Shown: positions 23,430 through 61,622 of the stretch, one piece after another
How positions within the stretch are numbered: the first letter of the stretch is position 1
Layout: each line of letters begins with the position of its first letter
Source of the DNA: Eledone cirrhosa
Taxonomy: Eukaryota
Assembly: GCA_964016885.1 (NCBI GenBank)
Contig: OZ024743.1
Span: 8,308,001-8,372,000, forward strand
DNA: 64,000 nt
Direction of reading: 5' to 3'
Made by a program: the position numbers and the translations under genes
The notes under the pieces: model-generated
What the model was told of the DNA's origin: nothing
Seen by the model: the letters and a program-made list of their open reading frames with translations, nothing else
Database searches by the model: none

Positions 23430-23966
23430 AAACAAATAACGAAACTCACTTTTGTATGACTGACGCTTAAACAATTAAGTTAAAAGTGTACATCCACATA
23501 TGTATACTGAAATACTAGTATGCATATAAATACACACACGTATACATATGTACATATACCGAGTTTTTCACTGGACACTTTACTGTGAGTGTCCAGCTAG
23601 TCTGTATGTAACCAAACAGACAAACCGGGTTTTAGAGTCATACGGGTTTTCAAGGAAACACCTTTCCTCTATTCTCCAGAGGCCGGAAGATGGGTATATA
23701 TTGCTGATGAGATGTAATAACATCGAAACTAGTCCAATATTCCTGTCTGGCTCTCTGGAGAATAGAGGAAAGGTGTTTCCTTGAAAACCCGTATGACTCT
23801 AAAACCCGGTTTGTCTGTTTGGTTACATACAGACTAGCTGGACACTCACAGTAAAGTGTCCAGTGAAAAACTCGGTACATGTACATATGTATACGTGTGT
23901 GTATTTATATGCATACTAGTATTTCAGTATACATATGTGGATGTACACTTTTAACTTAATTGTTTA
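23430..23966. mobile_element. Palindrome (arms 23468-23681/23753-23966) with a hammerhead in the loop; tail 23430-23467 on the left copy
   Basis: Arms are near-identical reverse complements; flanked by (TA)n; tail remnant also at ~5140-5205. Confidence 0.85.
23698..23740 (+). ncRNA. Type I hammerhead ribozyme, canonical core; predicted cleavage after C23734
   Basis: atattg-CTGATGA-gatgt-aata-acatc-GAAA-ctag-TC-caatat. Confidence 0.88.
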
Positions 23967-24062
23967 TATATATATATATATATATATATATATATATATA
24001 TATATATATATATATATACACACACACATATATATATATACATATATATATATATATATATA

Positions 24063-24525
24063 TATGATATTAAATAAATGGAAACTATATTTATAAAACC
24101 ATATTTATTTCGTTATATATATTTCAGGGATATCATATTAACAATATGTTATGCCATCTTCAGACAAAATACAATATAAACAGTCTTATAAATAAATAGA
24201 TACGACATACCTTTCAATCACCTTGCATTTGGGAGGTTGATTTGGCAGACTGCCAAATCAACCTCCCAAATGCAAGGTGATTGAAAGGTATGTCGTATCT
24301 ATTTATTTATAAGACTGTTTATATTGTATTTTGTCTGAAGATGGCATAACATATTGTTAATATGATATCCCTGAAATATATATAACGAAATAAATATGGT
24401 TTTATAAATATAGTTTCCATTTATTTAATATCATAAATATACTCCAAATACTTGTTGAGTGCTTTTATATCAGTTATAAATATTTACTCGTTGTTAACCC
24501 AACAATTTAAATATAACTTTCCATG
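24063..24525. mobile_element. Perfect 373-bp palindrome (centre 24249) plus ~90 nt tail; hammerhead motif at 24327-24392 (+) and mirror copy
   Basis: tattttgt-CTGAAGA-tggcata...tatccct-GAAA-tatata-TA-acgaaata. Confidence 0.8.
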
Positions 24526-24946
24526 TATATATATATATATATATATATAACGAAGGAAATGTGGTAAGGAACCAGGTGGACCATAACGCACCAAAGTACT
24601 CAATACTTAGGGTAGTAGAGTGGGTAATAGTTCCTATATATATATATATATATATATATACACACATATACATTAATAACAATAATAATAATAATAATAA
24701 TAATAATAATAACAACAATAATAATAACGACAACAACAACAATAATAATATACATATACATATATATACACACACTCACGCACACACAAACATATCTATA
24801 CACACACACGCGATAGCAACTAGCAGCGCTGCGATCGAATGTGGCTTTTTAGCCCAGCCAATGATCATACATACATACATACATACATACATACATACAT
24901 ACATACATACATACATACATACATACATACATACATACATACATAC

Positions 24947-25555
24947 ATGGTGGATGCCAACTCGTTTTCGAGTACGGCCACTACTTTATATCTATGTAGG
25001 AGAACCCCTACCGTTGCGCTGAACGAGTGTGACTTTTTAGTCCAGCCAGCGACTTGAAAACTCTGGTACAAACACTACACTTGTGACAATTATTGACACA
25101 TAGTGCTGGGCCCATGGTACCATGTGACGACAAGTGTAGAGAGATCTCCAGATATAAAGCAATGCCTGTGCCGTGAAGCTTTTATAGTGAGCAAAGGCAC
25201 TGCACAAAGTCAGTCTCACTCTCTTAACCAAGATGATATTTACCAAAAAGAAGAACAAGTCAACATCATTGGATACCATCAGGGTTGCTGGTGTTATATC
25301 AGAGTTTTCCTTCTCCTAGAATTCTGCCTTGACAAAGGCTAAGGGGTCATCTCTCCCGGTGATTTTGGATGGCCATTGACTCTTAAGAGCTCCTTTGCCC
25401 TTTGACAGGTTTTTTTTTAGTCCTGCAGGATGTCCAAAGTCACCCTCCTCACCAAGAAACCTTGGTGGGGTTGCCAGTTTAGTCGCCAACGACCCGACCA
25501 TGAGACAGGTTGTACTGGGATACATGTTACCAGTAGCACCAACTGGTGACCTGAC
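24947..25555 (-). mobile_element. Non-autonomous bipartite RTE derivative (5' UTR joined to ZnF/3' end) with (TATG)n tail; 3' fragment also at 45961-46113
   Basis: 25160-25360 is homologous to RTE 5' UTR 22757-22980; 3' part encodes [17 protein letters not shown]. Confidence 0.75.
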
Positions 25556-59784: not shown

Positions 59785-60275
59785 CTAGCAGTGGTACCCG
59801 GCGTTTCACGGGATAAGGTATTGTGAAATATATAACCGCCTTAGCTAAGCTTAGTATTGCCACAACCACGGCTGGCAAAGAAGTAAGGGTCTGGTGGTAC
59901 GTAAGTAAGCAACACTGAGGAAGAAGTTGTGTGCACTTACCAACTGTTTGGGGAATGAGTGTGAGATTCGTCTTGAGCAAGGGTGGCGGAATAACCGGAA
60001 GCAGCAGACATACAGACAGATATTATAAGGGCGCGACGTTATATGTAAGTATCTATCTAAAAAGAGAAAGACTAAGAATTATAGAGAGAGATTGCTAAAT
60101 CACCTAATGCGGTCCCTAGCTCATTGAAAATTTGAAATTTTTTTTTACTCAGAACACTCCCTGAAACAAGTATTACATGTGTAAAGTTTGAAAACAGTTG
60201 GTTGGGTGCTTCTCGAGTTTTAGGGATTCAAACTCACACACACACAGACAGACATCCTCAGTTTTATATATATAT
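59785..60275 (-). mobile_element. Non-autonomous Helitron
   Basis: Minus strand tatataaaactgaggatgtctg...cccgtgaaacgccggg-taccactg-CTAG|T. Confidence 0.75.
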
Positions 60276-60291
60276 ATATATATATATATAT

Positions 60292-60777
60292 TTCGTTTCT
60301 GAATTTGTTTAGCAAGATTCTTTATCTGAAATCGTGTGTTGAAACCGATATTGTTATACTTTGGGAGGGTCATATTGCCAATAAGAAACACACGCACCAG
60401 TTGCTTTCACTTCAATTTATTATATATTTATAAATTTATAAATTTCTGGTTGGTTGGTTGGTTGGTTCCACAACCAGATAGTTGTTTATATATAGTCATA
60501 GTTCTTTCGTCACACACTCTGTGACCTCTTCAGTGACTGAATGGCGTAGGACAGAACAAAGGAGAGGCACAGAAACAAAGAAAGGAATCCCCAGTCACTG
60601 AAGAGGTCACAGAGTGTGTGACGAAAGAACTATGACTATATATATAAACAACTATCTGGTTGTGGAACCAACCAACCAGAAATTTATAAATTTATAAATA
60701 TATAATAAATTGAAGTGAAAGCAACTGGTGCGTGTGTTTCTTATTGGCAACATGACCCTCCCAAAGTATAACAATAT
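60292..60777. mobile_element. Inverted PLE pLTR pair (arms 60348-60539/60592-60777) with a hammerhead on each arm (60494-60538 -, 60593-60637 +)
   Basis: agtca-CTGAAGA-g-gtcaca-gagtg-tgtgac-GAAA-gaac-TA-tgact; 3' end gaccctcccaaagtataac related to the 16.3 kb PLE end. Confidence 0.88.
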
Positions 60778-60786
60778 ATATATATA

Positions 60787-61622
60787 ATAAAAAAGAAAAT
60801 TTTCGCTCTACATGGCTGAATACAATAAATGTAATCTGAGTTTTTCGAATATTAATAATAACATTCGATTCATTTGCAATTATGCAAACAAGCCTCAATT
60901 CTATAGCCATGTCAGTAGAATGAACCCTTCATTCTTGCTCTTGTGTTGGCATGTGAACAGCCAGACTGCTAATATGCAAATCAGGCCAATCAGTCACTGT
61001 GTATTTTTGAAAATAGCATATATTTTCACTAGCTCTGACAGTTTGGCAGGTGAACAGTGAGCTGTACTGATGAAGGGTGATACCCAGAAACATTAGTATC
61101 TGCAGTTCTGTTCACATGCCAACACAAGAGCAAGAATGAAGGGTTTATTCTACTGACATGGCTATAAAATTGAGGCTTGTTTGCATAATTGCAAACGAAT
61201 CGAATGTTATTATTAATAGGCACATGGCTTAGTCGTTGGAGCATTGGGCTTGCAATCGAAAGGTTGTGAGTTCAATTCTCAGACCGGGTGATGTGTTGTT
61301 TCCTTGAGCAAGACACTTTATTAAAGTTTACTCAGCTGTAGAAATGAGATGATAGGACTGGGGTCTCTATCATTCCACTACAAAGTGGTCATGGAGGTGC
61401 CACGGCAAAAAGGCACCCAGCCCACACTGTAAAGTGGACGTGGAGGTGCCACGGAAAAAAAAGCACCCAGCACTCACTGTAAATGAGGTTGGTGTTAGGA
61501 AGGGCATCCAGCTGTAGAAATCAATCCAGAATCAATTCCCATCCCACCCTTGCAAGCAGGGAAAAGCGGACATAAAATGATGATGATGATGATGATTCAA
61601 AAAACTCAGATTACATTTATTA
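60787..61622. mobile_element. Inverted PLE-like pair with a hammerhead-like motif (61064-61098) in the loop; right arm split by a SINE
   Basis: Arms 60824-60960 vs 61108-61218 + 61595-61622; CTGATGA-a-gggt-gat-accc-a-GAAAcattag. Confidence 0.75.
61219..61594 (+). mobile_element. tRNA/CORE-like SINE with RTE-type 3' tail (GAT)n
   Basis: tggcttagt A box, gttcaattc B box, ccttgagcaagacacttt core, ggaaaagcggacataaaatgatgatg tail. Confidence 0.85.

Follow-up and report, generated by a model that had tools for sequence, protein, structure and literature searches.

How does a retroelement insertion come to consist of two inverted copies of which only one ends in an extra tail, and does the element's own ribozyme decide where the tailed copy stops? 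These questions are raised by a stretch of 64,000 nucleotides (nt) of Eledone cirrhosa DNA (contig OZ024743.1 of assembly GCA_964016885.1, positions 8,308,001 to 8,372,000), hereafter the window, which holds about a dozen hairpins, insertions of Penelope-like elements (PLEs) among them, most of them flanked by (TA)n. A first-pass annotation of the window had proposed that the tailed arm of each looped hairpin stops at a hammerhead ribozyme and that the tail-less arm reads through it. The asymmetry does exist in the form of a single tail per insertion, but the ribozyme stop is false. With moderate confidence we interpret such a hairpin as a head-to-head PLE insertion made by twin priming, in which a single capped and uncleaved sense RNA is copied from two fixed sites. 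The inverted copy with its one-sided tail and the two start sites are already published; the part worth following is a fixed start that carries an extra G.

Five families, named after their positions in the window in kb (F23, F30, F38, F60 and F61), were followed through the 3.0-Gb genome assembly, with copy counts obtained from exact patterns. Arm pairs were collected from position-ordered exact-pattern matches near the tail-less end, mostly at the start of contig C1 (C1 to C3 for F23), and the sample was extended by 30 F61 loci found with a core DNA query, by regions chosen because a pair was evident there and by pairs met by chance. Arm ends were placed by BLAST against real copies with an accuracy of about 5 nt and are given in nt from the predicted hammerhead cut, negative values lying upstream. 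The window loci and 41 pairs retrieved with queries shaped like the window hairpins were excluded from the counts, and the pair statistics rest on the sampled loci, 202 pairs in the five families.

Every family has two fixed 3' ends, the tail between them being the beginning of the next unit, and an insertion uses one of each. The PLE hallmark, an adjacent inverted 5'-truncated copy with a one-sided tail, was present in 190 of the 202 pairs (62/66 in F60, 45/49 in F30, 38/41 in F61, 32/33 in F23 and 13/13 in F38), each joining a tailed arm (T) to a tail-less arm (U), and the observation that the tail sits on one arm only is thereby confirmed. The tails are element DNA, as had been assumed, because the identical tail and the same two end points recur across many copies; that they are unrelated flanking DNA was rejected on this ground. 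The tailed start need not be the RNA 3' end for which the annotation took it, because the unit runs on beyond this point in tandem arrays.

The tail is not linked to arm length. Of the 190 raw pairs, 91 had a shorter tailed arm, 76 a longer one, and 23 were ties. Requiring at least 30 nt on both arms dropped 22 pairs and left 168, of which 69 had a shorter tailed arm and 76 a longer one, with 23 ties (p 0.62). No association between a tail and a shorter 5' extent thus exists across the pairs, which by the annotation's own account speaks against its claim. Nor is the tail linked to the ribozyme cut. Both arm types read through the ribozyme, 102 tailed and 95 tail-less arms of the 168 pairs passing it, and the proposed division into tailed arms that stop and tail-less arms that pass is contradicted. 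The two long copies of the window had also been described as tail-less, which is true of them, but long copies are often tailed: genome-wide, 15 of 31 F60 arms and 7 of 18 F30 arms of at least 1 kb carry a tail. Tailed and tail-less F60 ends are nearly equal in number across the genome (11,168 and 12,330). There was no peak of arm ends at the ribozyme cut in any of the five families, in which 10 tailed and 8 tail-less ends lie no more than 5 nt from it. Ends in the ribozyme zone slightly exceed those in equal flanks (F60, 28 versus 19 and 26; F61, 32 versus 19 and 25; F23, 17 versus 12 and 14; F38, 20 versus 8 upstream), an excess common to both arm types. As a general rule, the ribozyme stop is refuted by the pair counts.

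A fixed 5' end with an extra G is found in F30. Among the 84 F30 arms ending between -260 and +18, 30 (8 tailed and 22 tail-less, with the 5' end of the 30.0-kb tail-less arm of the window in the same cluster) fall at -125 to -119, a stretch of 7 nt for which 2.1 ends are expected, and none of 2,000 uniform simulations, run as the chance baseline, equalled this cluster. The fixed start lies 69 nt upstream of the ribozyme core and 124 nt upstream of the cut. The 24-mer from -124 has 10,962 copies in the genome and the exact read-through word at the start 1,539; the base preceding the start word is G in 2,077 cases, T in 1,555 and A in 556, the element's own base being C. The remaining C comes largely from hairpins in which both arms end at the start and overlap by 4 nt. 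A control C located 17 nt downstream was replaced by G in 30 of 8,343 cases. The element did not continue upstream at any of the 30 G loci examined, and in 17 of them, by eye, the partner arm does not supply the G; at a few junctions both arms have the extra G. The sequence at the site is TCA, the A being the first base, and resembles an initiator. From these data we infer that the fixed F30 end is probably a capped transcription start and the extra G a copy of the mRNA cap. Since this putative capped start lies upstream of the ribozyme core, F30 templates would have been uncleaved. Among 25 arms ending at the F30 start, the partner also ends there in 12 cases and is shorter in 13, never longer; conversely, none of 21 long arms has a partner at this start.

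The two arms of a pair also appear to share one template. Median divergence within pairs is lower than between loci in F60 (1.6 versus 4.3%), F30 (2.3 versus 4.7%), F23 (0.9 versus 4.4%) and F61 (5.6 versus 6.7%). At one F60 locus (L166, G000:C1:18413200-18413900), 26 of 28 rare A-to-G changes are common to a short tailed arm and a long tail-less arm; T-to-C changes are absent, and ribozyme core bases are among those altered. At a second (L208, G000:C1:2087860-2090090), both arms are tailed and have in common 43 of 44 A-to-G differences relative to the reference. The edited words of each locus occur only in its own two arms and nowhere else in the assembly. The pattern reads as ADAR-type editing of the sense RNA that would have yielded both arms. 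Retrotransposition of a whole edited hairpin transcript was rejected for both loci, because one arm would then show A-to-G and its partner T-to-C changes.

Under the twin-priming interpretation, both nicked strands of a (TA)n target would prime reverse transcription, one at each of the two ends of the tail, and the same capped, uncleaved sense RNA molecule would serve as template for both complementary DNAs (cDNAs). The outer cDNA would displace the inner one or stall behind it, and each would stop at random or at the RNA 5' end, that is, at the transcription start within the pseudo-long terminal repeat (pseudo-LTR), where copying of the cap would add the extra G. The two cDNA 3' ends would then be joined by short microhomology or end joining, leaving the surplus length of the further-extended cDNA as the loop. 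Twin priming at two fixed sites would account for the one-tail rule, for the independence from arm length, for the shared edits and for the tailed arms that lie wholly inside the tail (9/190), which have twin-priming geometry. Arms overlap by 1 to 9 nt at the junction in 88 of 183 pairs. The annotation's idea of two priming events survives here, two fixed sites being the best reading and one that matches in vitro data on an anole PLE (PMC11167929); the stop set by the ribozyme does not.

How did the window come to suggest otherwise? Rfam reports only one weak hammerhead in the window, and the other ribozyme cores were found by a motif scan and by eye. The arms of its five testable hairpins are as follows.

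23430..23681, minus strand: F23 tailed arm of the 23.7-kb hairpin; tail 23430-23467, shortened through an internal deletion from the family's ~70 nt; 5' end 12-18 nt past the predicted cut (about +12 to +18)
23682..23966, plus strand: F23 tail-less arm and loop, start -66; type I hammerhead core 23704-23734 (Rfam HH9, E 2e-4, under the gathering score), predicted cut after 23734
29961..30133, minus strand: F30 tail-less arm, Hydra-type, of the 30.0-kb hairpin; core 30068 to 30014, 5' end about -121
30134..30314, plus strand: F30 tailed arm; starts inside the ribozyme core, ~43 nt upstream of the cut (about -43), with a ~85-nt tail to 30314
37916..38064, minus strand: F38 tail-less arm of the 38.0-kb hairpin; hammerhead core 38049 to 37981, start -84
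38063..38246, plus strand: F38 tailed arm; starts at the predicted cut (-1), ~110-nt tail from 38137
60291..60539, minus strand: F60 tailed arm of the 60.5-kb hairpin; 57-nt tail 60291-60347, complete ribozyme with core 60533 to 60499, start -41
60540..60777, plus strand: F60 tail-less arm; ribozyme core 60598-60632, start -93
60788..60960, minus strand: F61 tailed arm of the 61.0-kb hairpin; ~38-nt tail, start 12 nt past the cut (+12)
60961..61622, plus strand: F61 tail-less arm; ribozyme core 61067-61095, start -142, split by an insertion at ~61219-61595

Six looped palindromes had been credited with a shorter tailed arm. This stands for all five testable hairpins, and the sixth, at 30.9 kb, is not independent. 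The tailed arm does begin at or just after the cut at 23.7, 38.0 and 61.0 kb; the other two extend past it, and "at the ribozyme" in the first-pass annotation spans three different situations. The 60.5-kb tailed arm contains the entire ribozyme and the 30.0-kb one reaches 43 nt beyond the cut, so neither can derive from cleaved RNA. The tail length of 35 to 85 nt given for the hairpins is exceeded at 38.0 kb. For five shorter tailed arms out of five, p would be about 0.012; with the added demand that the short arm end in the ribozyme zone, it falls to about 0.0004. Among 34 small looped pairs of similar form elsewhere, the tailed arm is the shorter in 14 and the tail-less arm in 20. In the pairs excluded because window-shaped queries had retrieved them, the tailed arm was shorter in 6, longer in 12 and tied in 1 of 19 F23 pairs, and shorter in 13 and longer in 6 of 22 F38 pairs, with two ties and one pair of like ends. 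The pattern of the window is an unusual draw, described post hoc from a single window with a loose notion of "at the ribozyme", and it fails in the larger sample.

The explanation first offered for it, a tailed cDNA made from ribozyme-cleaved RNA that ends at the cut and a tail-less one made from uncleaved RNA, is in our judgement very improbable. It draws on the five window hairpins, three of which start at or just after the cut, and on F30, where six pairs have the geometry it calls for and two the mirror image. A minority of cleaved templates may still contribute. In the whole sample, however, 17 pairs show that geometry and 22 its mirror, most tailed arms pass the ribozyme, few ends of either type lie within 5 nt of the cut, and two of the window's own tailed arms extend beyond it; L166, moreover, ends at the ribozyme edge despite an altered core. 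A second possibility is dual priming on two different uncleaved RNA molecules from one source locus, one for each target strand. The protein is a predicted dimer (PMC11167929), L1 has been proposed to use dual priming (PMC2837659), no strand displacement is required, and arms do differ by 1-6%. It is nevertheless improbable, given that private hyper-edits are common to both arms, that a long arm was never paired with a fixed-start arm (0/21), and that with two independent RNAs the single tail of 190 among 202 pairs goes unexplained. Both of these models explain little.

The main rival is fold-back, which explains most of the data too: a single cDNA primed at the tail end would fold back and copy itself, and the endonuclease would then trim the tail from either arm at its AT-rich inner end. 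A pure snap-back had been dismissed on the ground that it cannot yield the loop, which is wrong by geometry, the loop being looped-out cDNA; a tail on the shorter arm is what snap-back fails to produce unless trimming follows. With trimming, fold-back accounts for the shared edits and the closer arms within a pair (1.6% against 4.3% in F60), for one tail per pair, for the absence of a length link and for the fixed-start arm never having a longer partner. It also has precedents in PMC8557442, which attributes the tail to endonuclease resolution, and in PMC3846280, which proposes self-priming. The antisense-template version in PMC3846280, however, clashes with sense-strand A-to-G changes on both arms. 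Tail-only tailed arms would need later removal of the copied stretch, an extra G on both arms around a short insert suits two finished cDNAs, and in vitro both tail ends are true start sites from which both strands are extended (PMC11167929). We regard fold-back as rather unlikely, though a serious competitor.

Several results weigh against twin priming on one capped RNA, or fit it poorly. F30 alone leans toward a shorter tailed arm (29 to 8 before filtering, p 0.001; still 17 to 8 after it, p 0.11), the raw skew being partly one of detection because a tail-only tailed arm is visible and a tail-less arm needs about 30 nt to be seen. Nine pairs are tailed on both arms and three on neither. The claim of a single molecule comes from two edited loci, L166 and L208, the latter with a tail on each arm, and early gene conversion between arms or a lost edited source locus could mimic shared edits. 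Junction sequence alone cannot tell twin priming from fold-back. The cap and the start site are themselves deduced from DNA, and in 13 of the 30 G loci, judged by eye, the G may be the partner arm's own letter. In F60 the corresponding G test is weak (49 G versus 111 T of 3,702) and the end cluster loose (9 of 106 arms at -109 to -103), and F61 and F23 have no significant end hot spot.

Other copies in the window bear on the same families and claims.

3838..4232, minus strand: solo tailed copy of the 16.3-kb family
13838..16306, plus strand: broken, 5'-truncated, tail-less PLE with reverse transcriptase (RT) and GIY-YIG frames; ribozyme core from 16065
30872..31037, strand not assigned: old diverged hairpin (30.9 kb); ribozyme core degenerate at best
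38913..40226, minus strand: 5'-truncated tail-less copy of a second F30 subfamily; ribozyme core 39012 to 38958 and the last part of the endonuclease frame

The two long copies, ending at 16306 and 38913, are indeed tail-less, and the solo copy at 3838-4232 was correctly described as tailed and reading through its own hammerhead. The copy at 13838..16306 has 72% identity to F60, and that at 38913..40226 has no inverted partner. The 30.9-kb hairpin recurs as a whole at 43750-43960, with arms, loop and "tail" all repeated (151 of 220 columns identical), and was rejected as an independent two-arm insertion because it was copied whole within a larger inverted duplication. This diverged duplication of ~1.3 kb (30464-31847 and 43101-44188) also carries a 71-nt tandem repeat.

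The centres of the loop-less hairpins at 138-526, 3419-3818 and 4331-4461 recur in further family copies at initiator-like sites, and the motif scan found no hammerhead near these centres. In the 3.6-kb family, 9 of 16 examined arms begin no more than a few bases from one TCATT site, and the other 7 continue past it. The loop-less hairpins of the window agree with the idea of a fixed start. A YY1-like motif is present at 60541-60549, 16020-16028 and 3620-3635; in F60 and the 3.6-kb family it lies 5-15 nt downstream of clustered 5' ends, as in internal promoters. The hairpin at 59664-59779 represents a sixth hammerhead family, of which many examined copies begin just upstream of the ribozyme core. 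The insertion at 61219-61595 in the F61 tail-less arm has a weak tRNA match (Rfam E 0.68) and is kin to 10460-10551. A near-perfect hairpin of 607 bp occupies 55854-56460, with a third near-identical copy at 54238-54604, and the list of open reading frames (ORFs) indicates two long non-LTR retrotransposons with endonuclease and RT frames, at 19482-22835 on the minus strand and 32095-37290 on the plus strand.

The elements belong to kinds already known. F60 (14,160 genome matches to an exact 39-mer) and F30 (7,734 exact-pattern matches) are autonomous PLEs. Single ORFs with RT plus a GIY-YIG domain at the C terminus, their motifs read by eye, are present in the F60 copy L156 (863-aa frame) and in the F30 copy L268 (807-aa frame), which is full length, a partial tandem and tailed; profile support for the RT is weak (RVT_1 E 1e-3 in L156, none in L268), and the endonuclease profile match is to an I-TevI domain with E 0.29. 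A pseudo-LTR from partial tandem is seen in L268 and L269, which carry upstream and downstream copies. F60 has a CX4CxxC linker, and F60 and the 16.3-kb family share, by eye in L156 and L175, a CX2-5CxxC linker before a GIY-YIG domain with CCHH, which makes them Neptune- or Nematis-like by motifs. The L268 frame shows by eye DKT, a CxCX5C linker, and CxxC and CxH around conserved E and N, with (TA)n targets; RWI stands in place of RWK and the unit measures ~3.7 kb. By DKT, this linker, the CxxC and CxH of the endonuclease, the hammerhead and (TA)n, F30 resembles in its motifs the PLEs of the Hydra clade (PMC8557442), from which it differs in RWI and in its length, the clade's units being typically under 3 kb. 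Hammerhead cores are present in all five families, and most copies lie inside (TA)n, where a target site duplication cannot be read.

F23, F61 and F38 are built of units of 471, 440 and 542 nt arranged in tandem, and each unit has a single type I hammerhead (243, 4,341 and 4,331 exact-pattern matches); the F23 unit is non-coding. In being short tandem units with such a hammerhead the three families resemble the non-LTR retrozymes of animals (10.64898/2026.07.22.740005), and they differ in bearing the PLE insertion signature; here they are known from DNA. Because they are inserted with inverted arms and one tail, they appear to be tied to PLE enzymes. At L002, L005, L274 and L326, F23 is arranged as two diverging tandem arrays that meet head to head, one side having up to about six units, and one tail per insertion is kept.

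Among known systems, the closest are the insertion units of endonuclease-positive PLEs, with an inverted pseudo-LTR and a one-sided tail (PMC8557442; Adineta Pen2a, PMC3846280). The units here share with them the head-to-head 5'-truncated copy, the tail usually at one end, the pseudo-LTR hammerhead and the microsatellite targets, and differ in tail length, 38-120 nt here against 30-40 nt there, with three families exceeding the latter range; the measured one-tail rule with its independence from arm length, and the fixed start with an extra G, are additions to what the accessible parts of these papers describe. In vitro, Anolis Poseidon PAc (PMC11167929) likewise uses two start sites flanking the tail, extends both cut strands, has AT-rich targets and works from uncleaved template, its ribozyme mutants inserting normally; inverted arms, their joining and the choice between one and two RNA molecules are not treated there. 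The Penelope promoter has been placed in the pseudo-LTR (PMC2377424). An extra G at full-length L1 5' junctions is ascribed to cap copying (PMC11702581), as we propose for the similar G here. L1 twin or dual priming (PMC2837659) also joins two target-primed cDNAs head to head, although there the internal site is variable and the pieces do not overlap, whereas the present hairpins have two fixed sites and, for the most part, overlapping arms. In the literature searched, which did not extend to most subscription articles, the Penelope papers of 2004-2006 or supplements (that of PMC11167929, for example), we found nothing about PLE arms with a fixed start or a G derived from the cap, and no study of tail against arm length; the accessible parts of PMC3681739 and PMC13282606 contain nothing on the PLE insertion mechanism.

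The inverted ends and one-sided tails of PLEs, and the role of their ribozyme, are still under study (PMC8557442, PMC11167929). A ribozyme-stop rule, had it held, would have counted as in vivo evidence for a role of cleavage in shaping insertions, and the data point the opposite way. The edit-marked pairs agree better with one sense RNA than with the proposed antisense self-priming. As a tentative generalization, to which we give a little less credence than to the interpretation of the hairpins themselves, PLE integration may be twin priming with a fixed double start, in which a pair of enzymes would make two copies of a single capped, uncleaved RNA. Priming in the upstream pseudo-LTR would then yield short run-off cDNAs, comparable to retroviral strong-stop DNA, so that the thousands of small hairpins would show to the base where transcription of each family starts, and the ribozyme would have no role in setting insertion ends. 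The data offer sharp predictions: a base-exact capped start, and a one-tail rule near 94%.

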